64,000 nt of DNA from an uncultured Acidimicrobiaceae bacterium (GCA_964416425.1 CAYQEC010000002.1:102701-166700); one strand, 5' to 3'; counted from the stretch's first letter, positions 29,114 to 63,970 are shown. Notes: a model not told the origin generated them from the sequence alone. A program made the numbers and translations.

Positions 29114-29128
29114 GGGCGCCTCCCCCGA

Positions 29129-29911: not shown

Positions 29912-29962
29912 CTTGTCGTCCTTCCCACGGATCGGCGCCGCGGCCGGCCAAGATAGTCCCCG

Positions 29963-36732: not shown

Positions 36733-36742
36733 AGGAAGCGAC

Positions 36743-37273
36743 GTGACCGACCAGGACCTCCCGACCACCGACACCGCCGCCGGCGCCGACGACCCGGTGC
36801 TCGCGGAGCTGGCGGTGCTCTTCCCCGATGCCCGGTTCGAGCGGTTCGAGCCGCCGGTCGGCCCGGCGCAGGACGTCGTGCACGTCGCCCCCGCCGACTA
36901 CCTCGACCTGGTGACCGCCGCCCGCAACGCCGGCTTCGACACCTTCGTCGACCTCTGCGCGGTCGACTACCTGTGGCGCGATCCGCGCTTCGAGGTCGTC
37001 GTCATCCTGGGGTCGATGGAGCTGCGCCGCCGGCTGCGGATCCGGGTCGGCGTCGGCGGCTCCCGACCGACCCTGCCCACGATCACCTGGGTGTTCCCCG
37101 GCGCCAACTTCTACGAGCGGGAGTCCTTCGACCTCTACGGCGTCACCTTCGACGGCCATCCCGACCTGACCCGCATCCTGCTCCCCGACGACTGGGAGGG
37201 ACACCCGCTGCGCAAGGACGAGTCGGTCGGCTCGGTGCCGGTCCAGTTCAAGGAGGCACACAAGGCGCCATGA
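36743..37273 (+). CDS. nuoC: NADH-quinone oxidoreductase subunit C
   Basis: 176 aa; ...FDLYGVTFDGHPDLTRILLPDDWEGHPLRKD... NuoC signature. Confidence 0.9.
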   Translation: MTDQDLPTTDTAAGADDPVLAELAVLFPDARFERFEPPVGPAQDVVHVAPADYLDLVTAARNAGFDTFVDLCAVDYLWRDPRFEVVVILGSMELRRRLRIRVGVGGSRPTLPTITWVFPGANFYERESFDLYGVTFDGHPDLTRILLPDDWEGHPLRKDESVGSVPVQFKEAHKAP

Positions 37274-40645: not shown

Positions 40646-40658
40646 CGAGGCCGGTGAC

Positions 40659-44140: not shown

Positions 44141-44151
44141 GGTAAGCGCGG

Positions 44152-44841
44152 ATGGGTTGGTTCTCAGAGATGCTCGGTCCCTTCCAGGGATTCGCCACCA
44201 CCTTCCGGCAGATGTTCAAGCCGCGGGTCACCGTCTCCTACCCGCGGGAGAAGCGGGTGAAGCCGCAGCGCTTCCACGGCCGTCACATCCTCAACCGCTA
44301 CCCGGACGGCATGGAGAAGTGCATCGGATGCGAGCTGTGCGCCGGGGTGTGCCCGGCCCGCTGCATCTACGTCCGGGGTGCCGACAACCCTCCGGAACAG
44401 CCGGTCTCGCCGGGGGAGCGGTTCGGGTTCGTGTACGACATCAACATGCTGCGCTGCATCTTCTGCGGCCTCTGCGTCGAGGCCTGCCCCACCGAGGCGA
44501 TCACGATGACCCACCTCTTCGAGATGTCGGTCACCAATCGTGCCGATGCCATTTACACCAAGGCCGAGCTCCTGGTGGAGCCGGACGGGACCCCCAACCA
44601 TCCGCAACCCGCCAACCCGCTCATCGACCTCGACGAGCTGCGCCTCGGCTCGGGGTGGCTGCGGGCCACCTCCCCGTCGGGCCGCGCCGACTACGAGGGC
44701 GTCACCGCTTGGACCCCGTCGGCCACCGCCGGGGACCTTCCACCCGAGCAGGGCCAGCGCCGGCCGGGGCCGGCCGCCGGGGAGGCCGACGAGGTGGCGG
44801 CGGCCGGTGACGTCGACCGAGACGGGGAGGAAGCCCCGTGA
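44152..44841 (+). CDS. nuoI: NADH-quinone oxidoreductase subunit I (2x4Fe-4S) with about 50-aa C-terminal extension
   Basis: CIGCELCAGVCP and CIFCGLCVEACP motifs; 229 aa. Confidence 0.9.
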   Translation: MGWFSEMLGPFQGFATTFRQMFKPRVTVSYPREKRVKPQRFHGRHILNRYPDGMEKCIGCELCAGVCPARCIYVRGADNPPEQPVSPGERFGFVYDINMLRCIFCGLCVEACPTEAITMTHLFEMSVTNRADAIYTKAELLVEPDGTPNHPQPANPLIDLDELRLGSGWLRATSPSGRADYEGVTAWTPSATAGDLPPEQGQRRPGPAAGEADEVAAAGDVDRDGEEAP

Positions 44842-45392
44842 TTGAGGTCATCGTCTTCGCCATCTTCGCCGTGGCCGCCGTCGCCGGCGCCGTCACCCTG
44901 GTGGCGTCCCGCAACTCGGTGCACTCGGCGGTGGGGCTGCTGGTGACGATGTTCTCGATGGCGGTCTTCTACGTACTCAACGGCGCCCACTTCGTGGCGG
45001 TGGTGCAGGTCCTCATCTACGCCGGCGCGGTGATGACGCTGTTCCTGTTCGTGATCATGCTCATCGGGGTCGACAGGTCCGAGGAGCGGGAGGAGCGCAT
45101 CCCGTTCCAGCGGCCGCTGGTGATGGTGCTCGGCAGCGGCCTGCTGGTGCTGATCCTGCTGGCGGGACGCGCCGTCTGGGTGATCCGGGGCGGGCGCTCC
45201 GGCGTCGCGGTCGGCACTATCGAGGAGATCTCGGATCGCCTCTTCGGCACCTGGATGCTCCCGTTCGAGTCGACGGTGCTGCTGCTCACCATCGCCGCGG
45301 TGGGCACGGTGGCGCTGGCCCGCTACGGCGGCCGGTCCCGCCACGCCGAGTTCAGCGGCGGCGACGACGACGAACCGGAGGCGGGGGACTGA
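44838..45392 (+). CDS. nuoJ: NADH-quinone oxidoreductase subunit J
   Basis: 184 aa, 5 TM, ATGA overlap with nuoI. Confidence 0.85.
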
Positions 45393-45697
45393 TGGAGGTC
45401 ACGGGCGGCTGGTACATGGCATTGGGGGCGGTGCTCTTCTCCATCGGCGCCGCCGGCCTCCTGCTGCGCCGCAACGCCTTGGTCATGTTCATGTCGATCG
45501 AGCTCATGCTCAACGCCGTCAACCTCAGCTTCGTCGCCGCCGGCAACGAGCTGGGGTCGCTCGACGGGCAGCTCGCCGTGCTGTTCGTGATGGTGGTGGC
45601 CGCCGCGGAGGTCACGGTCGGGCTGGCGATCATCGTCATGGTGTTCCGGCGGCGGGCGACCGCCAGTGTCGACGAGCTGTCGGGGATGGGGGGCTGA
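45392..45697 (+). CDS. nuoK: NADH-quinone oxidoreductase subunit K
   Basis: ...[27 protein letters not shown]... NuoK/ND4L signature. Confidence 0.9.
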
Positions 45698-45701
45698 GGG
45701 C

Positions 45702-47588
45702 ATGACCGACCTGATCTGGCTGGTGATCGCCCTGCCGCTGCTCGGCGCCGTCGGGCTGCTCTTCCTCGGCCGCCGCCTCGGCGAGCCCGCGGCCGGCTGG
45801 GTGGCGTCGGCGACGGTGGTGGTGTCGTTCCTCATCGCCCTGGTGGCGGCGATCGACTTCTTCGGGGGCGGCGCCGGGGCCGAGCCGCAGCGGGTGATGC
45901 TCTTCGAGTGGATCCCCGGCCTTGGGATCGACTTCCAGCTCCTGTGGGACCCGCTCTCGGCGCTCATGACCCTCGTGGTCACCGGCGTCGGGGCCCTCAT
46001 CCACGTCTACTCGATCGGGTACATGCACGGCGACGCCCGCTTCGTGCGCTTCTTCAGCTACCTCAACCTGTTCATCATGTCGATGCTGACCCTGGTGCTG
46101 GGCGACAACTTCGCGGTGCTGTTCATCGGCTGGGAGCTGGTGGGGCTCAGCTCGTACCTGCTCATCTCGTTCTGGTTCGAGAAGCCGTCGGCGGCCGCCG
46201 CCGGCAAGAAGGCGTTCGTCGTCAACCGGATCGGCGACCTCGGCTTCCTCGTGGCCCTCATGCTGATCTTCGCCACCTTCGGCTCGCTCGCCTTCGGGGA
46301 CGTCTTCTCACGGGCGCCCGACCTGCTGAAGCACGGCGGCACCACGGCGACCGCCATCACCCTGCTGCTGCTGCTCGGAGCCGCCGGCAAGTCGGCCCAG
46401 CTCCCGCTCTACGTCTGGCTCCCCGACGCCATGGAGGGCCCCACCCCGGTCTCGGCCCTGATCCACGCCGCCACCATGGTCACCGCCGGTGTCTACATGG
46501 TGGCCCGCACCGGGGCGCTGTTCGAGCTGGCGCCCTTCTCGGCGGGCGTCGTCGCCACCGTCGGCACCGTCACCGCCCTCTACGCCGCGACGATCGCCAT
46601 CGGCCAGCGGGACATCAAGCGCATCCTCGCCTACTCGACGATCAGCCAGCTCGGCTACATGTTCCTCGGGGTCGGGGTCGCCGCCTACGTCGCCGGCACC
46701 TTCCACCTCATGACTCATTCCTTCTTCAAGGCCCTGCTGTTCCTCGGCGCCGGGTCGGTGATCCACGCCATGGCGGGAGAGCAGGGGGTGTGGAAGATGG
46801 GCGGCCTCCGCAAGGTGTTGCCGGTCACCTACGCCACCATGGCCGTCGCCTGGCTCGCCATCAGCGGCATCCCGCCCTTCTCCGGGTTCTGGTCGAAGGA
46901 CGAGATCCTCGCCGTGACCTTCGCCAAGGGCGGCTGGTACGTGGCGCTGTGGGCGGTCGGGGTCGTCACCGCCGGTCTCACCGCCTTCTACATGAGCAGG
47001 CTCATCTTCCTCACCTTCTGGGGTGCGCCCCGCTGGGACGAAGGGGTCGAACCGCACGAGTCGCCGTCGGTGATGACCCGGCCGCTGCTCGCCCTGGCGG
47101 CGCTGGCTGCCGTCGGTGGGCTGGTGAACATGCCGTGGACCCCCGCCCTCGAGCACTTCATGGAGCCCGCCTTCGCCGGGCTCCACCAGGGCCACCTGCC
47201 CTCCGGGGCGACGTCGTGGCTGCTGGGGGCGATCTCGGTCGGGGCGGCGGTCATCGGGATCCTCTACGGCTACCGCCGCTACGTCGCGGCCACCCTTCCC
47301 GACGAGACCGGGGCGGGATGGGACCTGTTGGAGCAGGGCTACCGGGTCGACGACCTCTACGGGGCCACGGTGGTGCTGCCCGGGAAGCGGGTGGCCGAGG
47401 CGATGGCGTTCCAGGCCGACGCCAAGGTCCTCGACGGCGCCGTCAACGGGGTCGGGGCCGCCGTCAAGGAGATCGCCGCCCGGCTCAAACCGATCCAGTC
47501 GGGCCTGGTCCGCAGCTACGGAGCGGCGATCCTGCTCGGCGCGGTCGGGGTGCTGCTTGTCATGCTGCTGCGGGGAGGCGGGCTGTGA
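45702..47588 (+). CDS. nuoL: NADH-quinone oxidoreductase subunit L
   Basis: MTDLIWLVIALPLLGAVG... about 628 aa antiporter-like subunit (...AMEGPTPVSALIHAATMVTAGVY...). Confidence 0.9.
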   Translation: MTDLIWLVIALPLLGAVGLLFLGRRLGEPAAGWVASATVVVSFLIALVAAIDFFGGGAGAEPQRVMLFEWIPGLGIDFQLLWDPLSALMTLVVTGVGALIHVYSIGYMHGDARFVRFFSYLNLFIMSMLTLVLGDNFAVLFIGWELVGLSSYLLISFWFEKPSAAAAGKKAFVVNRIGDLGFLVALMLIFATFGSLAFGDVFSRAPDLLKHGGTTATAITLLLLLGAAGKSAQLPLYVWLPDAMEGPTPVSALIHAATMVTAGVYMVARTGALFELAPFSAGVVATVGTVTALYAATIAIGQRDIKRILAYSTISQLGYMFLGVGVAAYVAGTFHLMTHSFFKALLFLGAGSVIHAMAGEQGVWKMGGLRKVLPVTYATMAVAWLAISGIPPFSGFWSKDEILAVTFAKGGWYVALWAVGVVTAGLTAFYMSRLIFLTFWGAPRWDEGVEPHESPSVMTRPLLALAALAAVGGLVNMPWTPALEHFMEPAFAGLHQGHLPSGATSWLLGAISVGAAVIGILYGYRRYVAATLPDETGAGWDLLEQGYRVDDLYGATVVLPGKRVAEAMAFQADAKVLDGAVNGVGAAVKEIAARLKPIQSGLVRSYGAAILLGAVGVLLVMLLRGGGL

Positions 47589-49129
47589 CCGGCTTCCCCA
47601 CCATCGCACTGCTCGTCGTGCTTCCCCTCGTCGGCGCCCTCGTGGTGGGGCTGGTCCCCAAGAGCCGCCGGGAGTTGCTGTTCCCGCTCGCGGTGGCGAT
47701 GAGCATGCTGCCGCTGGCCGTCGCCGGCTACATCCTGTGGGAGTTCCAGGTCGGCGACGCCGGCTACCAGTTCACCCAGCAGGTGTTGTGGTACCAGCCG
47801 TGGGGCATCTCCTGGAACGTCGGCATCGACGGGATCTCGTTGCTGTTGGTGGCGCTCACCGCCCTGCTGTTCCCGCTCTCGATCGCGGCCTCCCGGTCGG
47901 TCGAGAAGGACCTCAAAATGTACCTGGTCGTCATGCTGGTGCTGGAGACCGGGCTGCTCGGGGTGTTCGTCGCTCTCGATCTCATCCTCTTCTTCGTGTT
48001 CTTCGAGGTCACCCTGGTGCCGATGTACCTGCTGATCGGGATCTGGGGGAGCGGCCGCCGGGTCTATGCCGCCGTCAAGTTCGTGATCTACACCGCGCTC
48101 GGGTCCGCCCTGATGCTGACCGGGATCGTGTGGCTCGGGGTGGTGGGGGACACCTTCGACTTCCGCCAGCTTCTCGACGTCCCGCTCAGCTCGACCCAGC
48201 AGCTCTGGCTGTTCCTCGGCTTCGGGCTCGCCTTCGCCATCAAGGTGCCGCTGTTCCCGTTCCACACCTGGCTGCCCGACGCCCACACCGAGGCTCCCAC
48301 CGCCGGCTCGGTGCTGCTCGCCGGGGTGCTGCTCAAGCTCGGCGCCTATGGCTTCATCCGCTTCAACCTGACCCTGTTCCCCGACGCCGCGGTGCGGCTC
48401 GCCCCCTGGCTGGTGGCCCTGGCGGTGATCGGCATCGTCTACGGCGCCGCCGTCGCCATCGTGCAGCCCGACGTGAAACGGCTCGTCGCCTACTCCTCGG
48501 TGAGCCACCTCGGCTTCATCGTGCTCGGTATCTTCGCCATGACCAGCCAGGGCTTGCAGGGCGGGGTGATCCAGATGGTGAACCACGGCCTCACCACCGG
48601 GGCTCTCTTCCTGCTGGTGGGGATGATCTACGACCGGCGCCACACCCGGCAGATCGACGAGTACGGGGGGATCGCGGCGGTGATGCCGATCTTTGCCGGC
48701 GTCTTCCTGTTCACCGCCTTCGCCTCGATCGGGCTCCCCGGCCTCAACGGCTTCGTCGGCGAGTTCAACATCCTGCTCGGCAGCTACCTCCGCTTCCCGG
48801 CGGCGGCCGTTATCGCCGCCACCGGCGTGATCCTGGCGGCGGTCTACCTGCTGTGGGCCTACGAGCGCATCTTCACCGGCCCGATCGTCCGCCCGGCGAA
48901 CGAGAAGCTGCTCGACCTCGACTTCCGGGAGAAGGCGATCCTGCTGCCGCTGGTGGTGCTGATCGTGTTCCTCGGGGTGTACCCGAAGCCGGCGCTCGAC
49001 CGGATCGAGCCCTCGGTCGGGGCGGTGCTGGAGCGGATCGAGGCCACCACCGGCTTCGACGTGCCCGAGTTCGGCCTCCCGGCCGACCTGATCCGGCAGG
49101 CGCCCGAGTCGCCGGTGGGGGAGGAGTAG
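47585..49129 (+). CDS. nuoM: NADH-quinone oxidoreductase subunit M
   Basis: GTG start overlaps the nuoL stop (GTGA); ...FFVFFEVTLVPMYLLIGIWG... NuoM/ND4 signature. Confidence 0.9.
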   Translation: MTGFPTIALLVVLPLVGALVVGLVPKSRRELLFPLAVAMSMLPLAVAGYILWEFQVGDAGYQFTQQVLWYQPWGISWNVGIDGISLLLVALTALLFPLSIAASRSVEKDLKMYLVVMLVLETGLLGVFVALDLILFFVFFEVTLVPMYLLIGIWGSGRRVYAAVKFVIYTALGSALMLTGIVWLGVVGDTFDFRQLLDVPLSSTQQLWLFLGFGLAFAIKVPLFPFHTWLPDAHTEAPTAGSVLLAGVLLKLGAYGFIRFNLTLFPDAAVRLAPWLVALAVIGIVYGAAVAIVQPDVKRLVAYSSVSHLGFIVLGIFAMTSQGLQGGVIQMVNHGLTTGALFLLVGMIYDRRHTRQIDEYGGIAAVMPIFAGVFLFTAFASIGLPGLNGFVGEFNILLGSYLRFPAAAVIAATGVILAAVYLLWAYERIFTGPIVRPANEKLLDLDFREKAILLPLVVLIVFLGVYPKPALDRIEPSVGAVLERIEATTGFDVPEFGLPADLIRQAPESPVGEE

Positions 49130-49133
49130 CCGT

Positions 49134-50610
49134 GGAGAACATCGCCTTCCTCCCGATCGGCCCCGAAGTGGTGTTGCTGGCCGGCGCGGTGCTGGTGTTG
49201 ATGGCGGGGGTCGCCCTCAACCTCGGCTCCCGTGACTGGGCGATCCTGGCCGGGGTCTCCCTGGTGGCCTCCTTCCTCCTCTCCTGGGTGCAGTGGCTGC
49301 GGGTCGACGACCTGGGCCGCCAGCTGGCGTTCTCCGCCCGCGGGGTGGCGACGCCGAACACGCCGATGGTGGTGATGGACGCCTTCTCCGCCTTCGGGGG
49401 CATGGTGCTGTTCGTGGTGGCGATCCTGGCCGTGGCGGCGGCGTGGCGTCTCGTCGTCGAGCTGGGAGCCCGCGGGCCGGAGTTCGTGGCCCTGCTGCTG
49501 CTGGCCACCGCCGGGCTCCACATCATGATCATCTCGGCCAACCTCATCATGCTGTTCATCGGACTGGAGACCGCCTCCATCGCCCTCTACGTGGTGGCCG
49601 GGTTCACCCGCACCGAGCAGAACTCCGACGAGGCGGCGATGAAGTACTTCCTGCTCGGCTCGTTCGCGTCGGCGATCTTCCTCTACGGCATCGCCCTCGT
49701 CTTCGCCGCCACCGGCTCGCTCTCCATCTACGGTGGCGGCGGCATCCTCTCCTTCTTCCGTGACACCCCGGTGGCGCTGCTCGACGTCGGCATCCTGCTC
49801 GCCGGGATCGGTCTCATGATCGTCGGGCTCGGCTTCAAGATCTCGGCCGCCCCGTTCCACCAGTGGGCCCCTGACGTGTACCAGGGCGCCGCCTCCGGCG
49901 CCGTCCCGCTCATGACGGCCGGGGTGAAGGTGGCCGGGATCGCCACCATCACCCGGGTGCTGGTGGGGGCGTTCGGGTCCCGGATCGAAGACTGGGCCCC
50001 GGTGATCGCCGTGCTCGCCGCCCTCTCGGTGGTGGTGGGGACGTTGGGGGCGATCGCCCAGCGGGACGTGAAGCGCATGCTGGCCTACTCCGGGGTGGCC
50101 CACGCCGGGTTCATGCTGACCGGACTGGTGGCCGGCGGCGACGGCGTTCCCGCGGTGTGGTTCTACCTCGCCACCTACGCCGTGCAGCTCGTCGGCGCCT
50201 TCATCGTCGTGACCGTCGTCAGCGGCAGCCGGAGCGGGCGGTCCTCCTTCGACGACTACGAAGGATTGGCACGGCGGTCCCCGGTGCTGGCGGGGGCGAT
50301 GGCGACGTTCATGCTGGGGATGGGCGGCATCCCGGTCTTCACCGGCTTCGTGGGCAAGATCGGCGTCTTCGAGGCGGCGATCGGAGCCGGTTACCTGTGG
50401 CTCGTCATCGTCGGGCTGGTGGCGTCGGTCGCCGGCCTCTTCTTCTACCTGCGGATCATCGTCCTCATGTACTTCGAGGAGGCGGAGGCGCCGGCTCCCG
50501 TCACGACCCGAGGCGCCGGCACCGCCCTCGTGGTGGCGGCGGCCGTCACCCTGCTGGTCGGCGTCGTCCCGTGGCCGTTGCTCAACCTCGTCCAGCACGC
50601 CCTGCTCTGA
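49134..50610 (+). CDS. nuoN: NADH-quinone oxidoreductase subunit N
   Basis: GTG start; ...MLFIGLETASIALYVVAGF... NuoN/ND2 signature. Confidence 0.9.
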
Positions 50611-50645: not shown

Positions 50646-51950
50646 GTGCCGATGACGCTGCTTCCCGCCGGCCTCCGCCGCACCCTCGGCACCCTCGCCG
50701 TGCTCGGCGTCGCGCTGGTGGCGATCGCGGTTCCCTGGCGGGCCGTCGTCGCCGACGTCATCACCACCGGGGCCTACATCGTCACCGCCGACGAGGTGGA
50801 GAACGAGGACGTGTACGTCGCCGCCTCCAGCGGGTCGGTGGAGGGCGTCATCGACGGGGACCTCGCCATCGTCACCGGCGGCGATCTTGCCATCAGTGGC
50901 CGTGTGACCGGGGACGTCCTCGTCCTCTCCTCCGGCACGGTGTCGGTGACGGGCACGGTGGAGGGCTCGCTGCGGGGAGCGGCCCGCGAGGTCGCCATCG
51001 AGGGGACGGTGCAGCGCGACGTGGCCGTCGCCGCCATCTCGACCCGGATCTCGGGCACGGTCGACCGGGACGCTCTCGTCTTCGCCGCCTCGTTCGGTCT
51101 CTCCGGCGACGTCGGGCGCGACGTCAAGGGCAGGTTCGTCAGCGGCACCATCGACGGCGCGGTGGGCCACGACGTCGACGTAGCGGTCGGCGACCTCGAA
51201 CTGGGGCGGGCCGCCGCCGTCGCCGGGGACATCCGGTACCGCTCGGGAAGCGACGCTTCGGTGGAACCGACCTCGCAGGTGGGGGGACAGCTCGCCCGTC
51301 TCCCCACCCGGGGTTCGTTCTTCGTCGAGCTGATCCTGACGGTGGCCACCGTCCTCAGCTTCTTCGCCTTCCTGCTGGCGGGCATCGTGCTGCTGTGGGT
51401 GTTCCGCGCCACCGCGCCGCGGGCGGCCGGTGCCGTCCTGCGGCATCCTTGGCAGTCACTCCTGGTGGGAGGCGCCGCCGTGTTGTTGCTGCCCTTCGCT
51501 GTCGGATTCTTCGCCATCAGCCTGGTGGGGATCCCGCTGGCGGTGGCGCTGCTGCTCCTCATCGTGCTCGGGCTCCTCTTCGGGCCGATCCCGGCGGTGA
51601 CGGCGCTGGGCACCCGGATGTTGCGAGGCCGCGGCGGCCTCTACGGGGCCTTCCTGGTGGGAGGCATCGCCTGGAGGATCGGCATCTGGCTGCTCCCTCT
51701 CGTCGGTCTCGGCCTCTACCTCGGCGGCCTGGTTCTCGGGGTCGGAGGTTGGCTGATCGGAGCCTGGGAGCAGCGCCGGATCCGGTCGTCACGGCGCGCC
51801 GCGGGACCTGCCCCCGCCGCAGTCACTGCGACCGAGCCGGAAGGATGGGAAGCGCCGCTGGCGCCGGCCCCCGCCACACCGGTGGAAGCGGCCGGCGGCC
51901 CGGAGGCCGAATCCGGGGACGATCCCGCCACCGAGGAACCAGACCACTGA
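50646..51950 (+). CDS. bactofilin-like (polymer-forming, beta-helix repeat) domain fused to polytopic membrane domain
   Basis: Repeated G-x-V/I-x-G-D/T-V units (GDLAIVTGGDLAISGRVTGDVLVLSSGTVSVTGTVEGSL...) then about 6 TM helices and an acidic C-terminal tail. Confidence 0.5.
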   Translation: MPMTLLPAGLRRTLGTLAVLGVALVAIAVPWRAVVADVITTGAYIVTADEVENEDVYVAASSGSVEGVIDGDLAIVTGGDLAISGRVTGDVLVLSSGTVSVTGTVEGSLRGAAREVAIEGTVQRDVAVAAISTRISGTVDRDALVFAASFGLSGDVGRDVKGRFVSGTIDGAVGHDVDVAVGDLELGRAAAVAGDIRYRSGSDASVEPTSQVGGQLARLPTRGSFFVELILTVATVLSFFAFLLAGIVLLWVFRATAPRAAGAVLRHPWQSLLVGGAAVLLLPFAVGFFAISLVGIPLAVALLLLIVLGLLFGPIPAVTALGTRMLRGRGGLYGAFLVGGIAWRIGIWLLPLVGLGLYLGGLVLGVGGWLIGAWEQRRIRSSRRAAGPAPAAVTATEPEGWEAPLAPAPATPVEAAGGPEAESGDDPATEEPDH

Positions 51951-56334: not shown

Positions 56335-57186
56335 CTACTCGGGCAGGTCCACCACCAGGTCGGGATCGTTGGCGTCGGCCAGCTCGAAGCGCATCGTCAT
56401 CTCCCCGGGCCCGTCGAGTTCGAGCTCGGGTGGTATCCCCGTGTCGGCGAGCGCCGCCTCGTCGATCCCGACGGCCATGTCGAGCGCCACCACGTAGCCG
56501 TCTTCGGAGATCCAGGTGGTGAAGGTGTCGAACGAGACCCCTTCCAGGGCGGGCACGAGTCCCAGGCCGCCGAATCCTTCGACCGCCTCGCGCAGATCGA
56601 TCCGCTGGGCCGGGATCCCGTTGACGTCGTCCGACTCGGACGTCAGGCCCGAGATGCCGCCCGGCAGGCTGAACTGCTCCCAGAAGGTCGGCGCCGCCGG
56701 GCAGGTCTCGACGACCGATGCCGTGTCCGGATCGTCCAGCGAGGAGGGCTCGAAGCCGAACCCCGTGTCGACCCAAGCCTGGTACGGGGTGGCGACGACG
56801 TGCTGCTCGATGCCGAGCCCGAACATGTTGGTGGTCGTGCTGCAGGAGAAGGCCTCGGGCGTCCACACCCCTTCGGTGCTCATGTCGACGGTCAGCTCCC
56901 CGAGGTCGAAGGTCATCTCCATCGTGGCCGTGAAGCTGTCGAGCTCGGCTTGGGGAGTTCCCGCCATCACGGTGTAGATCGGCTCGTCGCCGATGGTGGT
57001 CGCCGTGTCGTCCGGGACGGAGGTGGTCGTGGACGTGGTGGTGGTCGCCGCCGCGGTGGTCGTCGTCGTGGCAGTGGCCGTGGTGGTGGTCTCCGGTGGC
57101 GCCGCCTGGGTCGTGTCGCTGCCGTTGTTGCTGCAGGCGGCGCCCAGCAGCGACAGGGCGGCGACGGTGGCGAGGAGCCGTCGCAT
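56335..57186 (-). CDS. hypothetical lipoprotein with Thr-rich linker
   Basis: MRRLLATVAALSLLGAACSNN lipobox; TTTTATATTTTTAAATTTTSTTTS linker. Confidence 0.5.
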   Translation of the reverse strand: MRRLLATVAALSLLGAACSNNGSDTTQAAPPETTTTATATTTTTAAATTTTSTTTSVPDDTATTIGDEPIYTVMAGTPQAELDSFTATMEMTFDLGELTVDMSTEGVWTPEAFSCSTTTNMFGLGIEQHVVATPYQAWVDTGFGFEPSSLDDPDTASVVETCPAAPTFWEQFSLPGGISGLTSESDDVNGIPAQRIDLREAVEGFGGLGLVPALEGVSFDTFTTWISEDGYVVALDMAVGIDEAALADTGIPPELELDGPGEMTMRFELADANDPDLVVDLPE

Positions 57187-57188: not shown

Positions 57189-58328
57189 TCAGTGTCCCTT
57201 CTCTGCATCGGCTGGTCCGGACCCATCGGTGGGTCCCGCCGCCACCATGAGCGGTATCAGGCGTTCGGCGTCGGTGAGGCCCCCGTGGGCGCCGGTCATC
57301 CGGTCGTCGCTGTGGCGGTGGAGCAGCAGGATATCGTCGTCGGCGACGAGCACCCCGTCGGGAGCCCGCTCCTCGAACGCCGGATGGAGCGGGCCAGGCC
57401 CCCACCAGGAGCGCATCTCGTCGATGGAGATCCAGGTGGCGGGGAGCTTCGCCGCCAGCGAGGCTCCCTCTCCCTTCACGAACATGGCGCGCCCGTCTCC
57501 GAAGAACTCGCGGTCGGTGTGGTCCGCCTTGGCGATGCGGATCTGGTGGCCCGGGGGGAAGTCGACGTGACCGTGGTCTGCGGTCCCCACCGCCACCGCT
57601 CCCGCCGGCAAACGTAGGCAGAGCCGTTCCCAGGCGGTGGCGACGGTCCGCACCGCGACGGCGTACTCGTCGGCGCCCTGGCCGTAAACGTGGGCGGCGA
57701 AGTCGACCTGGGGCAGGTAGGCGAGGATCAGCCTGCCGGGGTGCTCCGCGAGCTGGGCGGCGGCGTCCACCCACTCGCCGATCGTGGAGATCCCCTCGAA
57801 CCGGGATCCCCGGTAGAGGACCTCGCTCAGGTTGCTGCCCTCGAAGTTGGCCGGCTGGATGACGATCGGCTCGACGCCGCGCCCGGCGAGGCGCTCCCAC
57901 AGGTTGGGCGAGGGGAGGAAGGGACGCGGCGTGAAGTCGATGGCGTCGCCCCACAGTGTCCTCCAGTGGATCGTGTTGACCACCTTGCCGACCGAGGGGA
58001 GCCACATCTGGTAGCCGAGCAGGCCGTGGCGGGACGGGGGCAGTCCGGTCGCCAGCGATGCCAGGCTGACGGTGGTGGTGGTCGGGAACGGGGCGTCGAG
58101 CCGTCCGACCAGGGCATCCCGCAGCGGGGCGGCCGCCGGGTGGTCGAGCTGGTGGAGGCCGAGCCCGTCGCAGAGGACCAGTACGTAGGTCGCCGCCTCC
58201 GGGATGAGGTCTGCCACCTTCGGGTGGAGCGGGGCCGAAGGCGCCGCCCCGGCGAGCCGCAGCTCGAGCTCGGCGACGAGGTTGACGAGGGAGCCGCCCG
58301 CATAGTCGGGCACGGTGATCGACGGCAT
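57189..58328 (-). CDS. alkaline phosphatase superfamily protein (nucleotide pyrophosphatase/phosphodiesterase-like)
   Basis: ...YVLVLCDGLGLHQL...TTTVSLASLATGLPPSRHGLLGY...GTADHGH... are AlkP-core metal-ligand motifs. Confidence 0.7.
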   Translation of the reverse strand: MPSITVPDYAGGSLVNLVAELELRLAGAAPSAPLHPKVADLIPEAATYVLVLCDGLGLHQLDHPAAAPLRDALVGRLDAPFPTTTTVSLASLATGLPPSRHGLLGYQMWLPSVGKVVNTIHWRTLWGDAIDFTPRPFLPSPNLWERLAGRGVEPIVIQPANFEGSNLSEVLYRGSRFEGISTIGEWVDAAAQLAEHPGRLILAYLPQVDFAAHVYGQGADEYAVAVRTVATAWERLCLRLPAGAVAVGTADHGHVDFPPGHQIRIAKADHTDREFFGDGRAMFVKGEGASLAAKLPATWISIDEMRSWWGPGPLHPAFEERAPDGVLVADDDILLLHRHSDDRMTGAHGGLTDAERLIPLMVAAGPTDGSGPADAEKGH

Positions 58329-58370: not shown

Positions 58371-59060
58371 CTACTCGGGGAACCGGACGATGCGGGGGGC
58401 GGCGAGGTCGTCGTTGTCGATCAGGACGTCGGCGCGGGCCTCCGGCTTGGCCACCCTGGCGTACAGCTCCTGGCCGGGGATGTAGCGGCGACGGTACCTG
58501 CGCGCCGTCTCCTCGGCGGTGCCGAAGCGGACCTCGTCACGGTCGAGGGCCCGCTCCAAGGCCACCCCGACCCGCACCGCCAGGAAGACCGTGAGGTCCC
58601 AGCAGTCCCGTAGCTCCGGGCGCAGCAGGAAGACGCCGTCGAAGAGCAGCACCACGTCGTGGGGCACGACCCGGGGTCTCTCCTCGACCCGGGCATCGTG
58701 GCGGGCGTCGGACACCCGGGTCCGGATCTGGCGGGTGCCGTCGGGGCCGAGCGGGTCGAGCAGCGCTCGCCGCAGGGCCGGGTAGTCGAAGGAATCCTCG
58801 TAGTAGCTGCGAGCCGGGTCCTCGCCGGACCGGCGCTGCCGGATCGGTGCCGGATGGTGGAACCCCTCGACCGAGGCCCGCACCACGGTCATGCCGGCTG
58901 CGCCGAGCGGGGCGGCGAGCTCATCGGCGAAGGCGGTCTTGCCGGCGGCGTCCATGCCGTCGATGCCCACCAGGAAGGGCTCGGTCCCCGCGCGTCGTGC
59001 GATGAGGCCGGCGACGCGGGAGATGACCCGATCCCGCGGTGACCTGTCGTAGCTGACCAT
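58371..59060 (-). CDS. uridine kinase-like P-loop nucleoside/nucleotide kinase
   Basis: ...FLVGIDGMDAAGKTAFADELA... Walker A; internal start MVSYDRSPRD used. The upstream part of ORF 58371..59474 has no coding character. Confidence 0.6.
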   Translation of the reverse strand: MVSYDRSPRDRVISRVAGLIARRAGTEPFLVGIDGMDAAGKTAFADELAAPLGAAGMTVVRASVEGFHHPAPIRQRRSGEDPARSYYEDSFDYPALRRALLDPLGPDGTRQIRTRVSDARHDARVEERPRVVPHDVVLLFDGVFLLRPELRDCWDLTVFLAVRVGVALERALDRDEVRFGTAEETARRYRRRYIPGQELYARVAKPEARADVLIDNDDLAAPRIVRFPE

Positions 59061-59291: not shown

Positions 59292-59675
59292 GTGCTTGAT
59301 CGGTACTTCGGGGACTACATCACCGTCGGTGTGTTCCTGGCGGTGGGTGCGCTCATCGTCGGCGGCGCGGTCCTCGCCTCGGCGATGCTCCGCCCCAACA
59401 GGCCCAACCGGTTCAAGTCCGAGGTGTACGAGTGCGGCATCGCCCCGATGGGGAGCGGCTGGAGCCAGAGTCACATCCGCTACTACATCTTCGCCCTGCT
59501 CTTCCTCGTCTTCGACGTCGAGGCGGTGTTCATCTTCCCTTGGGCGGTGCGGGTCGAGGCCTTCAGTAGCGCCGGGATGGGGGCATTCGTGCTCGTCGAG
59601 ATGATGATCTTCATCGTGATCCTGGTGCTCGGCCTCGTCTACGCGGTCCGCAAGGGAGTGCTCCGGTGGGAGTGA
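59292..59675 (+). CDS. complex I-like subunit A paralog (NuoA2)
   Basis: ...YECGI...[12 protein letters not shown]...; clearly paralogous to nuoA at 35834. Confidence 0.85.
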
Positions 59676-60163
59676 TCGAGAAGTTCGGCGCCCCCAAACC
59701 GCTCTCCTGGCTGCTCAACTGGTCACGCAAATACTCGCTGTGGTTCTTCAACTTCGGGCTCGCCTGCTGCGCCATCGAGGTGATGGCGGCGGCCGGACCC
59801 CGCTACGACTTCATGCGCTTCGGCGTCATCCCGCTTCCGGCGTCACCCCGCCAGGCCGACCTCATGGTGGTGGCAGGGACCCTCACTGACAAGATGGCGC
59901 CCGCCGTCAAGCGTCTCTACGACCAGATGCCCGACCCCAAGTACGTCATCTCGATGGGGTCGTGTGCCAACTGCGGCGGACCGTACTGGGACTCCTACTC
60001 GGTCACCAAGGGCGTCGACCAGGTCATCCCGGTCGACGTCTACGTACCCGGCTGCCCGCCGCGGCCCGAGGCGCTGATGGAGGGGATCCTGCTGCTGCAG
60101 GAGCAGATCACCCACGAGGATGTGCGGCGGAAGTGGAGCGAGCGTGACCCCCAGCCCGTCTGA
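59666..60163 (+). CDS. complex I-like subunit B paralog (NuoB2)
   Basis: [10 protein letters not shown]...GSCANCGG...PGCPP. Confidence 0.85.
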
Positions 60164-60743
60164 GACCGCCACGGACCCGGCTGCGCTCGCCGCCCGCCTC
60201 GCCGACCTGGTCGGTTCCACCGAATGGAGCGCCGAGCACGGCACGGTGAAGATCCAGGTGGAGCGGGATCGGTGGGTCGAGGCCATCCGCACCGCCCGCG
60301 ACGAGGCCGGCCTCGCCTTCTTCTCATGGCTCTCGGCCGTCGACTGGACCCGGGAGGTGGCGGTGGGCGACCCGCCGGCCGAGCCCGACACGGTCGAGGA
60401 GCGCTACGACGTCCTGTGCCGCCTCTCCTCGGTGGAGCGAGCCGACGCCGCCGTCTTCGTTGCCTCGCTCCCCAAGGACGGCGCCCGGATCGACTCCCTC
60501 GTCCCCGTCTTCGGAGGCGCCGCCTGGCACGAGCGGGAAGCCGCCGAGATGTACGGCATCGAGTTCACCGGGCATCCCCATCTGGTCAAGCTGTACCTGC
60601 CGGAAGGCTTCGAAGGTCACCCGCTCCGCAAGTCGTTCCCGTTGCTTTCCCGTGAGGTGAAGCCCTGGCCGGGCACGGTCGACGTCGAGGCCATGCCGTC
60701 GACCGAGAACCGGGAAGCCGGCGAGGGAGGCGAGGAGGCATGA
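60144..60743 (+). CDS. complex I-like subunit C paralog (NuoC2)
   Basis: ...[24 protein letters not shown]...; GTG start, 20-nt overlap with NuoB2. Confidence 0.8.
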
Positions 60744-61933
60744 CCACCCTCGACTCCGGCGGCCTGGTCCACATCTCCGACGCCGCCGTCTCGGTGGAGC
60801 TGGTGGGTGAGGACATGATGCTCAACATCGGCCCGCAGCATCCCTCCACCCACGGGGTGCTGCGTCTCATCGCCCAGGTCGACGGGGAGCGGATCACCCG
60901 ACTCGAGCCGGTCATCGGCTACATGCACCGCGGCAAGGAGAAGCTGGCCGAGGTGCGCACCTACCCCCAGATCACCACCCTCATCAACCGCATCGACTGG
61001 ATCTCCGGATTCGCCAACGAGGTCCCGTTCGTGGTGGCGGTGGAACGGCTCATGGGCATCGAAGCGCCCGAACGGGCCCAGTACATCCGGCTCATCCTGA
61101 CCGAGCTGACCCGCATCTCGAACCACCTCGTGTTCGCTTCCTCCTACCCGCTCGAGCTCGGCGCCGCCACCCCGCTCATGTACGCCTTCCGGGAACGGGA
61201 GCGGGTGCTCGACCTCATCGAGGGCGTCACCGGCGGACGGTTCCATCCCAACTTCAACCGGGTCGGCGGCGTCAAACCCGCCGCCGGCGGGGGATCCACC
61301 CAGAAGAAGGTGGTGCTCGACCTGCCCGAGGGGTTCTTCGACGCCACCCGCCGCGCCATGGATCGGGTCATCGAGGTGTGCGACGAGATCGACGACCTCG
61401 TCGTCGGCAACGAGCTGATCCAGGCCCGCACCATCGGCGTCGGCGTGATCCCGGCCGAGAAGGGCCTCGAATACGGTGTCTCCGGTCCCAACCTGCGGGC
61501 GGCGGGGGTCGACTTCGACCTCCGCAAGCACGAGCACCTGCTTCCCTACGACGACTTCGAATTTGACGTCATCGTGCGCCCCAACGGGGACTGCTTCGAC
61601 CGCTACGTCGTCCGCATCGAGGAGATCCGCCAATCGGTCTCCCTCGTGCGCCAGGCCATCGACAAGATCCCCTCCGGCCCGCTCCAGGCCAAGGTGCCCC
61701 GGGTGCTCAAGGTCCCGCCGGGCGAGATCTACGTCCGGGCGGAGAACCCGAAGGGCGAGATGGGGTACTACGTCGTGTCCCAGGGCGGGCGGGTGCCCTA
61801 CCGGGTCAAGATCCGCTCCGCCTCCTTCTCCAACATCTCGGTGCTGCCCTGGGTGGCGCAAGGCCAGCTCATCCCGGACCTGGTGGCGACGATGGGGAGC
61901 CTCGACTTCGTGTTGGGAGACGTCGACCGATGA
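60740..61933 (+). CDS. complex I-like subunit D paralog (NuoD2)
   Basis: ...[15 protein letters not shown]... and C-terminal ...DFVLGDVDR; 397 aa. Confidence 0.85.
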
Positions 61934-62940
61934 GTTTCAGCGTCGAGTTGCTGCTGAAGGTGGTCGTCGTCCTCGGCCTCGTCCTGCCCCTGGCGCTGGT
62001 GGTCATCTTCGGGGAGCTGAAGATCTCGGCCCACATGCAGAGCCGGATCGGGCCCTACTTCGCCGGCGGCCGCTGGGGTTGGGCCCAGCCGCTCGCCGAC
62101 GCCGTCAAGTTCATGCAGAAGGAGGACCTGGTACCCGCCGGCGCCGACACTCAGGTCTACAAACTCGCCCCCTACGTGGTGCTCATGGGCACGGTCGCCA
62201 CCTTCGTGATCATCCCGATCGGGCCCGACCTGGTGTCGCGGAACCTCGACCTCGGGCTCTTCTACGTGCTCGCCGTGTCCTCGCTGTCGACACTGGGAGT
62301 GCTGATGGCGGGATGGTCGTCCGGCAACAAGTACTCCCTCATCGGCGGGTTGCGGGCCGGCGCCCAGCTCATCGCCTACGAGCTGCCGCTGGTGCTGGCG
62401 GCGGTCGGGGTGGCGGTCCAGGCCGGGACGCTGTCCCTCAACGGCATCGTCGCCGCCCAGGCCCAACCCTGGTTCCACATCGGGGACTTCGGTGTCGCCG
62501 TGCCCTTCGTGGTGTCGGGCCAGATCATCGGGTTTCTCATCTTCCTCACCGCCGGCCTGGCCGAGCTGAGCCGGATCCCGTTCGACATGCCGATCGCCGA
62601 ATCCGAGCTGACGATGGGCTACCTCACCGAGTACTCCGGCATCCGCTTCACGATGTTCTTCCTCGGCGAGTACGCCGGCATGGTGTCGCTGTCGGCGATC
62701 GCCGCCACCCTCTTCCTCGGCGGATACTGGCTGCCCGGCCTCAGCGGCGACGCCCTCAACTGGGTGGGGCCGCCGGTGCTGATCGGCAAGGTGCTGTTGC
62801 TCTGCTTCCTCTTCATCTGGTTCCGCTGGACCTTCCCCCGGCTGCGGGAAGACCAGCTGCAGGGCCTCGCCTGGAAATGGCTCATCCCGGCGGCCCTCGT
62901 CAACATCGTGGCGACGGCGTTCTTCAAGGTGGTCTTCTGA
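61930..62940 (+). CDS. complex I-like subunit H paralog (NuoH2), directly after NuoD2 (no E/F/G)
   Basis: ...[27 protein letters not shown]... Confidence 0.85.
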
Positions 62941-63401
62941 TGGCCAAGATCCCCCTCGGCGGTCTGCTCAAGGGCATGAAGGTGACGCTCAAGGCGCTCT
63001 TCACCAAACCCGTCACGGTCAACTACCCCCTCGAGAAGGAGACCCTGGTGCCGCGGGCCCGCGGGGTCATCGCCCTCGACGTCGAGAACTGCACGGTGTG
63101 CATGCTGTGCGCCAGGGAATGTCCCGACTGGTGCATCTACATCGAGGGCCACAAGGAGGAGGCCCCGCCCTCCAAGCCGGGCGGCCGGGTCCGGTCCCGG
63201 GCCAAGCTCGACCGTTTCGACATCGATTACGCCCTCTGCATGTACTGCGGCATCTGCGTCGAGGTGTGCCCGTTCGACGCCCTCTACTGGAGCCCCGAGC
63301 ACGAGTACAGCGAGTACCGGATCTCCGACATGCTGCACGACAAGGAACGTCTCACCGAATGGCTGGAGACGGTCCCCGAGCCCCCGGCGCTGGAGCCATG
63401 A
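62940..63401 (+). CDS. complex I-like subunit I paralog (NuoI2, 2x4Fe-4S)
   Basis: [12 protein letters not shown] and [12 protein letters not shown]; ATG overlaps the NuoH2 stop. Confidence 0.8.
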
Positions 63402-63970
63402 TGCCCGTGATCGCCGTCACCGCCGCCGACTGGTTCGGGGAAGTCGAGAACTGGGTGTTCCTCGTGATCGCGGTCGTGATGGTGGCCGGCTCCTTCCGGG
63501 TCGTCACCAGCCCCAACGTGGTGCACGCCGTGCTCGCCCTGGTGGCAGCCCTCGGCGCCTCCGCGGCGCTGTTCCTGCTGCTCGGGGCGGAGTTCGTCGC
63601 CTGGACCGTGGTGCTGGTGTACATCGGCGCCGTCGTCGTGCTGTTCCTCTTCGGGATCATGATCACCCGGGCCCCTCTCGGTCACGAGACCGCCCTCAGC
63701 CACCCCTTGCGGGTCCGGGCCGGGGCTGCCCTCGTCTCCGGGGCGCTCTTCCTCCTCATCGGGGGCGCCATGCTGGACGCCTTCTCCGACCGCCTCATCG
63801 ACGAGCCGGCCGCCGCCACCCGAACCGCCGACCTGGGCAAGTCGATGTTCGAACGGTTCGTGATCCCCTTCGAGGTGGTGTCGGTGGTGCTGCTCGCCGC
63901 CCTCATCGGCGGCATCGTGCTGGCGAGGAAGGACCCGGAACCGGGCGTCGCCGGCGAGGTGTCGCGATGA
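63398..63970 (+). CDS. complex I-like subunit J paralog (NuoJ2)
   Basis: 190 aa, 5 TM; ATGA overlap with NuoI2; cluster continues past the window end. Confidence 0.75.

Follow-up and report, generated by a model that had tools for sequence, protein, structure and literature searches.

An eleven-gene complex I-like cluster without an NADH dehydrogenase module, in tandem with a canonical nuo operon in an uncultured Acidimicrobiaceae bacterium

A second set of complex I genes, lacking nuoE, nuoF and nuoG, was found downstream of a canonical nuo operon in a 64,000 nt stretch of DNA (the window) from an uncultured Acidimicrobiaceae bacterium. This set, cluster 2, is an ancient paralog of the canonical complex I genes that has been passed down vertically within Acidimicrobiia. 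By analogy with related enzymes its product would most likely be a proton-pumping oxidoreductase passing electrons from ferredoxin, or another low-potential donor, to menaquinone, an assignment to which we give about an even chance.

The initial annotation had placed nuoA2-B2-C2-D2-H2-I2-J2 in this order at 59292–63970, and each gene corresponded to an ORF that strongly matched the anticipated Pfam family (Table 1). The stop and start codons along this run overlap: nuoA2 and nuoB2 share 10 nt, the start of nuoJ2 overlaps the stop of nuoI2, and the ATG of nuoH2 overlaps the stop of nuoD2 by 4 nt (61930 against 61933). This last overlap means that nuoE, nuoF and nuoG cannot sit between nuoD2 and nuoH2, in agreement with the annotation. 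The start of nuoC2 is that of the JGI gene call on a matching contig; the longest ORF begins at 60120.

Table 1 Features of cluster 2, its continuation on the matching contig, and operon 1. Positions marked "ext." are window-equivalent (contig coordinates + 50739)
Feature	Position	Strand	Details
nuoA2	59292..59675	+	127 aa; PF00507 Oxidored_q4, 7.7e-35; GTG start
nuoB2	59666..60163	+	165 aa; PF01058 Oxidored_q6, 1.5e-30; bears cluster N2
nuoC2	60144..60743	+	199 aa; PF00329 Complex1_30kDa, 3.1e-31
nuoD2	60740..61933	+	397 aa; PF00346 Complex1_49kDa, 5.3e-83; quinone-site subunit
nuoH2	61930..62940	+	336 aa; PF00146 NADHdh, 5.6e-102
nuoI2	62940..63401	+	153 aa; 2x[4Fe-4S]; Fer4 dicluster families; TIGR01971 NuoI, 3.7e-30
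nuoJ2	63398..63970	+	190 aa from ATG 63398, or 189 aa from 63401; PF00499 Oxidored_q3, 7.8e-34
nuoK2	64020-64325 (ext.)		contig extension
nuoL2	64330-66444 (ext.)		contig extension
nuoM2	66461-68035 (ext.)		contig extension
nuoN2	68039-69571 (ext.)		contig extension
Methyltransf_28 gene	69660-70724 (ext.)		contig extension; PF02636
HtpX gene	70875-71750 (ext.)		contig extension; M48 peptidase
Operon 1	35834-50610		nuoA,B,C,D,E,F,G,H,I,J,K,L,M,N; canonical 14-gene complex I

Over 13,261 nt, the window differs from JGI contig Ga0315555_1000138 by a single mismatch. Past the end of the window this contig carries all four of nuoK2, nuoL2, nuoM2 and nuoN2, for which the annotation had proposed a search, followed by a Methyltransf_28 gene and a gene for an HtpX (M48) peptidase. 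All 11 families (NuoA, B, C, D, H, I, J, K, L, M and N) were matched by Pfam in one cluster spanning the window and the contig extension. No nuoE, nuoF or nuoG was found downstream of cluster 2 in the 7.9 kb of contig past the window, and the cluster is a complete 11-gene nuoABCDHIJKLMN without an N-module of its own. Genes for FrhB/FpoF-like proteins, ferredoxins or flavodoxins were absent from the window ORFs scanned with Pfam and NCBIfam models and from the genes called in the 7.9 kb extension, bearing out the earlier statement that the donor is not encoded locally.

Operon 1 is on the same strand and its stop at 50610 lies 8,682 nt ahead of nuoA2, consistent with the 8.7 kb first given. 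The identity between the two sets of paralogs is 31–55% (NuoA2 40%, NuoB2 55%, NuoC2 32%, NuoD2 42%, NuoH2 43%, NuoI2 32%). They are therefore not recent duplicates, as had been concluded from the lengths of NuoD (397 aa in cluster 2, 478 aa in operon 1) and NuoI (153 and 229 aa). Identity is lowest in the peripheral-arm subunits NuoI and NuoC, which would face NuoG. NuoD2 is without an N-terminal extension of about 80 residues found in NuoD1, and NuoI2 without a C-terminal extension of about 75 residues found in NuoI1, which is 76 aa longer. A gene for a MenJ-like menaquinone reductase directly upstream of nuoA1 (NF045655, 5e-83, under the model cut-off) suggests a menaquinone-based chain. 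The gene neighbourhood has an aerobic respiratory look.

The ORFs of all 11 cluster-2 genes are intact and, when compared with five orthologous loci, every gene gave a dN/dS of 0.05–0.72, indicating purifying selection. The gene order is common to 79 Acidimicrobiia species loci (NuoD identity 66–79%); the complete A–N run is present in 53 of them and the remainder are interrupted by contig ends. No match to E, F or G was found by tblastn in any of the 79. Across the loci that reach beyond nuoN2 no extra gene is conserved after it and the neighbours vary (GNAT, NUDIX, Methyltransf_28), which agrees with the published conclusion that such enzymes have no dedicated partner (PMC3144371).

The ligands of the iron–sulfur clusters are in place. 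Those of N2 in NuoB2 are C34/C35 in CCAIE, C100 in GSC and C130 in GCPP, and NuoI2 provides those of N6a and N6b in a pair of CxxCxxCxxxCP motifs (residues 51 and 100). The acidic FDVE motif of NuoA2 is kept, and the glutamates of NuoK2 and the lysine motif K...P..H.WLPDA of NuoL2 and NuoM2 are present; a simple regular expression for the TM7 lysine motif had no match in NuoN2 and likewise none in NuoN1. NuoB2 scored above the cut-offs of the NCBIfam NuoB subfamily models (NF005012, 237.6 against 116; TIGR01957, 227 against 142.7).

NuoD2 has only two cysteines (214 and 285; C-terminus ...LGDVDR), so both the N- and C-terminal pairs that ligate [NiFe] are missing and it is not a hydrogenase of the group 4 membrane-bound/FHL type; its PDB matches gave 336 bits for Nqo4 against 138–195 bits for MBH, MBS and FHL large subunits. 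A canonical 14-subunit NADH:quinone oxidoreductase was rejected as the cluster has no E, F or G and NuoD2 scores 428.8 on TIGR01962, below the cut-off of 459.35 (NuoD1, 544). NuoD2 does exceed the cut-off of NF004739 (420.8 bits against 360).

The initial annotation held that a complex of this kind must take electrons from another donor, such as ferredoxin or F420H2, via a separate input subunit. This was not established: no dedicated partner was found in published work on 11-subunit enzymes (PMC3144371), and sharing of the NuoEFG of operon 1 is possible (cf. PMC4453560). In the mechanism that we favour by homology, a low-potential cytoplasmic carrier would donate electrons to the exposed clusters N6a and N6b of NuoI2. 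This carrier would most likely be reduced ferredoxin, which would need no dedicated input subunit and would dock on the surface of NuoI2/NuoC2/NuoD2 itself. Electrons would then pass to N2 on NuoB2 and on to the presumed acceptor, menaquinone, in a pocket formed by NuoD2, NuoB2 and NuoH2, with proton pumping expected via NuoH, A, J and K and the antiporter-like NuoL2, M2 and N2. Maturation would probably involve the co-located NDUFAF7-like methyltransferase, acting on Arg64 (HRGXE) of NuoD2, and the HtpX protease. The choice of ferredoxin is purely by analogy: this carrier feeds cyanobacterial NDH-1 and the Methanothrix Fpo-like complex. For the N-module-less enzyme of Desulfitobacterium hafniense, ferredoxin is the currently proposed donor (PMC11238625).

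It is rather unlikely that the enzyme is an Fpo/Fqo-type F420H2:menaquinone oxidoreductase, with an FpoF/FqoF-like subunit encoded elsewhere docking on the 11-subunit core. This role was proposed by Lopez-Perez et al. for the orthologous cluster of Ca. Actinomarinales, which has ≤35% identity to M. mazei Fpo, F420 being widespread in actinobacteria (PMC7771536), and NuoD2 aligns to the FpoD model end to end in one stretch, as against two for TIGR01962, NF004739 and NdhH. However, the scores on the Fpo NCBIfam models are far under their cut-offs (FpoD 342.9/600, FpoH 253.3/475, FpoI 55.6/180, FpoC 56.5/220, FpoJ 38.1/110) and under those on bacterial Nuo models, and NuoD1 has a nearly equal FpoD score (329.4), so the resemblance of NuoD2 to FpoD is generic. 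The absence of an FrhB/FpoF-type gene from the scanned window ORFs and the 7.9 kb downstream, and of any gene conserved immediately after nuoN2 in the loci extending that far, also argues against F420H2.

An NADH-dependent isozyme, in which the Q/P core of cluster 2 would combine with NuoE1, F1 and G1 so that two versions of complex I share one N-module, also seems improbable. Spero et al. (2015, PMC4453560) noted that two isozymes could arise where a genome has a single nuoEFG but duplicate sets of the other genes, and the closeness of the operons on one strand is consistent with this. So is the position of a nuoN-like gene, regarded as marking where operon 1 ends, not more than about 8 kb upstream of the cluster in 7 of 45 related loci (nuoM/N-like pairs in 5 of the 7). 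In the other 38, however, there is no such end of operon 1 over that distance. The divergence of the paralogs, strongest in the peripheral-arm subunits I and C, and the absence from NuoD2 and NuoI2 of the extensions of their counterparts likewise speak against a common N-module. The second-sphere arginine near cluster N2 is on NuoD2 (Arg64, HRGXE) in cluster 2 but on NuoB1 in operon 1: NuoD2 has MHRGKEK where NuoD1 has LHTGMEK, without HRGXE, and the Thr in VAGTLT of NuoB2 corresponds to the Arg in VAGRVS of NuoB1. This placing on different subunits points to separately co-evolved complexes. None of the evidence against a shared N-module is decisive.

The third alternative concerns the quinone site. 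NuoD2 aligns without gaps to T. thermophilus Nqo4 over residues 19–179 and, in Nqo4 numbering, His38 is kept, Tyr87 is replaced by Trp and Asp139 by Glu. H38, R64, W87 and E139 are invariant in NuoD2 and the 200 close relatives examined (201/201), whereas NuoD1 of the same genome is canonical (H38/Y87/D139). NuoD2 therefore lacks an intact form of the Tyr/His pair that canonically donates protons in quinone reduction, so that quinone reduction by the cluster-2 enzyme may run differently, or its acceptor may differ. Reviews describe the tyrosine as strictly conserved and essential for binding of the quinone headgroup (PMC8119997). W87 recurs in NuoC/D fusions from Methanofastidiosia and Methanonatronarchaeales, and the sister clade of NuoD2 is an orphan NuoD. 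As the quinone-ligating Tyr is replaced, the enzyme might be an unconventional quinone reductase with another acceptor or partner, or one that works mainly in reverse, pmf driving the reduction of a low-potential carrier from menaquinol. We consider this unlikely: His38, Arg84 and the NuoH/NuoB quinone-tunnel scaffold are all retained, Trp would still be able to hydrogen-bond or stack with the naphthoquinone head group, and every proton-pumping subunit is under purifying selection, as expected of an energy-coupled quinone enzyme. A decaying duplicate or pseudogene array, finally, can be dismissed, as nothing was found to support it and 11 intact ORFs with coupled starts, full cofactor motifs, dN/dS < 1 in every gene and an order kept in 79 species-level loci all stand against it.

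The gene after nuoN2 encodes an NDUFAF7/MidA-type Methyltransf_28 protein (PF02636, 143.9 bits against a cut-off of 23.3) with PDB matches to 4f3n (3.9e-33), 1zkd (6.3e-27) (COG1565/MidA) and the NDUFAF7 homolog 5ztz (2.2e-13). In mitochondrial and Paracoccus complex I the HRGXE arginine of NDUFS2 is dimethylated in an NDUFAF7-dependent reaction (Hameedi et al. 2021, PMC8042128). Cluster 2 resembles these systems in that NuoD2 has HRGKE and an NDUFAF7-family gene adjoins the operon, and NuoB2 has Thr where Thermus Nqo6 has a compensating Arg. It differs in that symmetric dimethylation of Arg64 is putative, being predicted from the target motif, and the gene adjoins the operon in only about one fifth of related loci. 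The sister clade of NuoD2 is an orphan NuoD gene in Nocardioidaceae which lies beside an NDUFAF7-like gene and has no NuoB partner nearby. We tentatively suggest, as a possibility, that the NuoD2 lineage (the Acidimicrobiia 11-subunit enzymes and the Nocardioidaceae orphan NuoD, with Arg64/Trp87/Glu139) forms an actinobacterial branch of its own within the 49-kDa family, in which the otherwise universal Tyr/His/Asp quinone-protonation triad has been rebuilt and which is linked in function to an arginine methyltransferase of the NDUFAF7 type. In that case the quinone-site (or acceptor) chemistry of the second complex would be unlike that of any complex I studied, and the bacterial NDUFAF7–NuoD pairing would be a tractable model of a mitochondrial assembly step.

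Among known systems, Fpo/Fqo of Methanosarcinales and Archaeoglobus shares with cluster 2 a NuoABCDHIJKLMN-homologous core and a short NuoD that aligns with FpoD throughout; cluster 2 is bacterial, has no FpoF/FqoF (FrhB-family) input subunit or FpoO among the scanned window ORFs and called extension genes, and presumably reduces menaquinone rather than methanophenazine. Cyanobacterial/chloroplast NDH-1, a ferredoxin:plastoquinone oxidoreductase, likewise has an eleven-subunit Nuo-homologous core without an N-module, its ferredoxin input being a mechanistic analogy. NdhA and NdhH are among the top-scoring solved relatives of NuoH2 and NuoD2, and for NuoH2 chloroplast/cyanobacterial NdhA is the best (219.9 bits, above M. 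smegmatis NuoH at 197.9). However, the NdhH and ndhI models score below their cut-offs (357/583 and 64.9/302), the operon, which has no additional genes, is without those for the oxygenic-specific subunits NdhL–V and NdhS, and NdhH retains the Tyr (RWDY in the alignment), unlike NuoD2.

Eleven-subunit "ancestral" complex I-like enzymes without a dedicated partner have been catalogued in bacteria and archaea, with actinobacteria among the phyla (Moparthi & Hagerhall 2011, PMC3144371), and the nuoABCDHIJKLMN of D. hafniense is an example (Willemin et al. 2024, PMC11238625). Cluster 2 has the same gene set and order and also lacks NuoEFG, [NiFe] cysteines and a linked donor gene but, unlike the D. 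hafniense set, it forms a tandem with the genes of a canonical 14-subunit enzyme, in a seemingly aerobic respiratory neighbourhood. NuoD2 has Trp in place of the canonical quinone-binding Tyr.

Earlier publications on the Acidimicrobiia order Ca. Actinomarinales describe both the 11-gene tandem arrangement and the idea of F420/ferredoxin as donor; Ca. Actinomarinales/TMED189 has a 14-subunit operon, an iron ABC transporter, an 11-subunit operon, NDUFAF7 and htpX (Lopez-Perez et al. 2020, mSystems, PMC7771536; Bulzu et al. 2021, bioRxiv 10.1101/2021.02.01.429150). Here too an Fe3+-type ABC transporter lies between the operons and NDUFAF7 (PF02636) and htpX follow nuoN, a synteny from which we infer orthology. 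Unlike Ca. Actinomarinales (about 32% GC), the lineage here has 70% GC and the 80 closest species loci all have at least 56%, and the interval between the ABC transporter and nuoA2 is without heliorhodopsin, holding genes for a lipoprotein, a Phosphodiest-family protein and a PRK-like kinase. To the published picture the present analysis adds the Trp87/Glu139 of NuoD2, the N2 arginine on NuoD2 as opposed to NuoB1, and the orphan-NuoD sister clade in Nocardioidaceae.

The seven ORFs of cluster 2 run consecutively as nuoA2-B2-C2-D2-H2-I2-J2 (see table), the order given in the initial annotation, which had left no gap for nuoE, nuoF or nuoG. Their Pfam matches have E-values of 1e-30 to 1e-102, and in NCBIfam all seven fall among Nuo subunit models. 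Neighbouring genes overlap by 10 nt (A2/B2), 20 nt (B2/C2), 4 nt (C2/D2 and D2/H2), 1 nt (H2/I2) and 1 or 4 nt (I2/J2), which fits a single translationally coupled operon, and the overlap of D2 with H2 means that E/F/G cannot sit between them. Scans of the operon and the region downstream gave no sites resembling promoters, and those resembling terminators did not rise above background; an Rfam scan of the whole window gave no match.

The protein sequence of NuoD2 was found unchanged on JGI contig Ga0315555_1000138 (46,979 bp), which matches the window from 50740 on with one mismatch in 13,261 nt. This contig supplies the continuation of the operon: nuoK2, nuoL2, nuoM2 and nuoN2 are all present, followed by genes for a Methyltransf_28 protein and two peptidases. 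Neither nuoE/F/G nor FrhB/FpoF-like genes were found after nuoN2 on it, so the claim that cluster 2 lacks an N-module also holds past the window end.

Features of the two nuo clusters, their surroundings and related loci (window coordinates unless a contig is named)
Feature	Position	Strand	Remarks
Rex-like regulator	22370-23320		
Rieske protein, split cytochrome b, 2x[4Fe-4S] protein, multihaem cytochrome c	25267-30409	-	
Extra 2x[4Fe-4S] protein	29963-30409	-	148 aa; the 2x[4Fe-4S] protein of the row above; with multihaem cytochrome c
Fused cbb3-type CcoN-CcoO-like oxidase	31256-33271		
Cytochrome c	33276-34367		
MenJ-like menaquinone reductase	34417-35682		immediately upstream of nuoA1
Operon 1	35834-50610		
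nuoB1	about 36250-36732		
nuoD1	37270-38706		
Weak bactofilin-like ORF	50646-51950		434 aa; directly after nuoN1; Bactofilin 24.4 bits, sub-threshold (cut-off 27.9)
ABC transporter, iron(III) Afu-like type	between the nuo operons		type inferred from Pfam families
Predicted lipoprotein	56335-57186	-	between ABC transporter and Phosphodiest gene; no Pfam match
Phosphodiest-family gene	57189-58328	-	alkaline-phosphatase superfamily
PRK-like kinase	58371-59060		
nuoA2	59292-59675	+	127 aa; expected Pfam family
nuoB2	59666-60163	+	165 aa; expected Pfam family
nuoC2	60144-60743	+	199 aa; expected Pfam family
nuoD2	60740-61933	+	397 aa; expected Pfam family
nuoH2	61930-62940	+	336 aa; expected Pfam family
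nuoI2	62940-63401	+	153 aa; expected Pfam family
nuoJ2	63398/63401-63970	+	190/189 aa; expected Pfam family
nuoK2	Ga0315555_1000138, past window		101 aa
nuoL2	Ga0315555_1000138, past window		704 aa
nuoM2	Ga0315555_1000138, past window		524 aa
nuoN2	Ga0315555_1000138, past window		510 aa
Methyltransf_28 (NDUFAF7/MidA family)	after nuoN2		354 aa; PF02636 143.9 bits; PDB relatives 4f3n, 1zkd, 5ztz (NDUFAF7 homolog)
HtpX-type M48 protease	Ga0315555_1000138, after Methyltransf_28 gene		
Methyltransf_28 and HtpX genes together	Ga0315555_1000138, 18921-21011 (window-equivalent 69660-71750)		
S8 peptidase	Ga0315555_1000138, after HtpX gene		start only
Orphan NuoD and Methyltransf_28	L083, 8596-11203		
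Orphan NuoD and Methyltransf_28	L084, 2714-7203		
Orphan NuoD and Methyltransf_28	L087, 2033-7206		

Operon 1, upstream, holds all 14 genes, including those for NuoE (2Fe-2S_thioredx), NuoF (Complex1_51K and NADH_4Fe-4S) and NuoG. From its last stop codon to nuoA2 we counted 8,682 nt, in agreement with the 8.7 kb stated previously. Judged by identities of 31-55% (A 40%, B 55%, C 32%, D 42%, H 43%, I 32%, J 32%, K 47%, L 38%, M 43%, N 31%), the genes of the two clusters are old paralogs, in line with the earlier view that they are no recent duplicates, and the lengths quoted in its favour were reproduced (NuoD1 478 aa vs NuoD2 397 aa; NuoI1 229 aa vs NuoI2 153 aa).

All four N2 ligands are present in NuoB2 (C34/C35 in CCAIE, C100, and C130 in GCPP), as are both CxxCxxCxxxCP motifs in NuoI2. 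NuoK2 retains both membrane glutamates, and NuoL2 and NuoM2 retain the K...P..H.WLPDA motif. Both the Q-module and the P-module of cluster 2 are complete and conserved, every Fe-S ligand being in place, and there is no N-module. Among solved structures, NuoH2 scores best against NdhA of chloroplasts and cyanobacteria (~220 bits), ahead of NuoH from M. smegmatis (198 bits) and Thermus (187 bits). A pseudogene array was ruled out by the intact ligands and motifs and by dN/dS values of 0.05-0.72 for all eleven genes (pairwise, against five orthologous loci), and a hydrogenase by NuoD2, which has two cysteines only, neither at a [NiFe] position.

The closest 120 homologs of NuoD2 (72-94% identity) are labelled Acidimicrobiia or Actinomycetota wherever named. 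Complete Acidimicrobiia genomes with cluster 2 include OY970227.1, OZ241390.1, OY762464.1, OZ241841.1, OY282370.1 and OZ242000.1. At least 582 relatives occur among GTDB species representatives; the best 80 of these all have a GC content of at least 56% and nearly all are titled Acidimicrobiia or broader or unnamed actinobacterial MAGs, four being titled Acidobacteriota or Kiloniellaceae. The full A-B-C-D-H-I-J-K-L-M-N run was seen in 53 of 79 usable loci, the rest being interrupted by contig ends, and none of the 79 gave a match to E, F or G. One further locus, L078 (CP070681.1, 992272-1013453), was left out of the counts for its 500-N scaffold gap; its inverted nuoL/M/N-like genes upstream of a truncated C2-D2-H2 are probably a scaffolding artefact. 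In 7/45 loci a nuoN-like gene, presumed to be the last of operon 1, lies within about 8 kb upstream.

The sole conserved upstream neighbour across related loci is a divergent Phosphodiest-family gene, directly before nuoA2 in 54 of 59 and with no obvious redox role or respiratory link; in the window the PRK-like kinase gene separates the two. The 3' neighbours of nuoN2 in 55 loci were GNAT (22), NUDIX-like (19) and Methyltransf_28, the last holding this place in only about 10 (10 counted). No dedicated electron-input gene was conserved beside the cluster among these 55.

The quinone site was compared by gap-free alignment of NuoD2 with residues 19-179 of T. thermophilus Nqo4. His38 is kept, position 87 is Trp (NRIDWISGF vs PRMDYLHSF in Nqo4) and position 139 is Glu; H38, R64, W87 and E139 are invariant in 201/201 NuoD2-type sequences (that of the window and 200 relatives). 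Reviews call Tyr87 strictly conserved and count it among the ligands of the quinone head group (PMC8119997). At these four positions NuoD1 has H, T, Y and D. Trp87 was found in 34 of the 150 nearest representatives of clusters at 50% identity. In a neighbour-joining tree without bootstrap, limited to those 150, the closest branch to the Acidimicrobiia NuoD2 group is its sister, an 'HDW' group (Nocardioidaceae/Propionibacteriales), the two forming an all-W87 clade. NuoD1 lies outside this clade in the same tree, among sequences of the Thr64/Tyr87 type, and two archaeal NuoC/D fusions (Methanofastidiosia, Methanonatronarchaeales) carry W87 and branch elsewhere. A literature search for the residue of FpoD at the Tyr87 position gave nothing relevant.

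The HDW-group NuoD gene of three long contigs (L083, L084 and L087) is an orphan: a span of 6-10 kb around it contains no second nuo gene. An NDUFAF7-like Methyltransf_28 gene lies 0.6-3 kb upstream, and a hexapeptide acetyltransferase gene is placed directly before it in L083 and L084, and also in the short contigs L085 and L086.

The two paralogs also differ beside cluster N2. NuoD2 carries the HRGXE motif (MHRGKEK) and its partner NuoB2 reads VAGTLT; in operon 1, NuoD1 reads LHTGMEK and the arginine is on NuoB1 (VAGRVS), at a position which we take, from the N2-ligand numbering, to be that of Arg83 in Nqo6. The HRGXE arginine, 3.7 Å from N2, is symmetrically dimethylated by NDUFAF7 in mitochondria and Paracoccus, and in Thermus Arg83 of Nqo6 occupies the equivalent space (PMC8042128). 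One genome thus holds both the Thermus arrangement (operon 1) and the mitochondrial one (cluster 2). From this placement it follows that NuoD2 alone would offer a substrate to the methyltransferase encoded after nuoN2, and that in each complex NuoB and NuoD look adapted to one another.

The window is a neighbourhood of respiratory genes. Between the nuo operons lie the bactofilin-like, ABC transporter, lipoprotein, Phosphodiest and PRK-like kinase genes; the lipoprotein, whose long linker is rich in Thr and Ala, recurs in only a few of the closest loci. Because a Rex-like gene is present, the window was searched for the Rex operator TTGTGAANNNNTTCACAA with up to 3 mismatches. The single match, at 1289 inside an MMPL gene, is at chance level, and neither nuo operon has one nearby. 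The ORFs scanned with Pfam and NCBIfam include none for ferredoxin, flavodoxin or an F420-related protein, in keeping with the initial annotation, which had placed the donor outside this DNA.

The electron donor of complex I enzymes that lack the N-module is a long-standing question in bacterial bioenergetics. In the scheme that we prefer, to which we give an even chance, a soluble low-potential carrier would donate electrons at NuoI2 and menaquinone would accept them, with proton pumping. Ferredoxin is the shown donor of cyanobacterial NDH-1 and of the Methanothrix Fpo-like complex. It was also proposed for D. hafniense, where growth on lactate and pyruvate is rotenone-sensitive (Willemin et al. 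2024, PMC11238625). This analogy, the lack of a linked or conserved input subunit and the poor fit of Fpo models make ferredoxin our tentative choice of carrier. The same poor fit speaks against F420H2 delivered through an unlinked FpoF-like protein, which seems unlikely. Sharing of the NuoEFG of operon 1 is equally doubtful, as the NuoG-facing subunits of cluster 2 are strongly diverged, shorter forms and the arginine is swapped between the B/D pairs. An altered acceptor or reverse operation is suggested by W87/E139 but is the least probable of these readings.

Since no partner gene is linked to cluster 2, the locus gives no new handle on the donor; it is a further well-conserved example, in widespread uncultured sediment, soil and marine actinobacteria. 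The natural Tyr87-to-Trp/Asp139-to-Glu site, the reciprocal N2 arginine and the recurring NuoD-NDUFAF7-like pairing, which we did not find in the literature consulted, are modest, testable additions that could guide mutagenesis as well as structural and mass-spectrometric studies of a relative in culture.

The 11-subunit enzyme was reported in about 12% of surveyed organisms, actinobacteria included, with no designated partner protein, and was proposed to work with several donors (Moparthi & Hagerhall 2011, PMC3144371). Ca. Actinomarinales, also of class Acidimicrobiia, have two nuo clusters, one without EFG, separated by heliorhodopsin and Fe3+ ABC transporter genes, and the truncated one was suggested to use F420, 'like other actinobacteria' (Lopez-Perez et al. 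2020, PMC7771536). A conserved unit of afuABC, HeR, nuoA,B,C,D,H,I,J,K,L,M,N, NDUFAF7 (PF02636), htpX, pspE and adenosine kinase, with a 14-subunit operon nearby, has also been described (Bulzu et al. 2021, bioRxiv 10.1101/2021.02.01.429150). The cluster noted in the initial annotation is confirmed, but both it and the proposed entry of electrons from ferredoxin or F420H2 through a separate input subunit, a reasonable hypothesis, were already in the literature, the same arrangement having been published for Actinomarinales. Judged by synteny, the present locus, found in a high-GC lineage of Acidimicrobiia, is probably orthologous to that arrangement, minus the heliorhodopsin.
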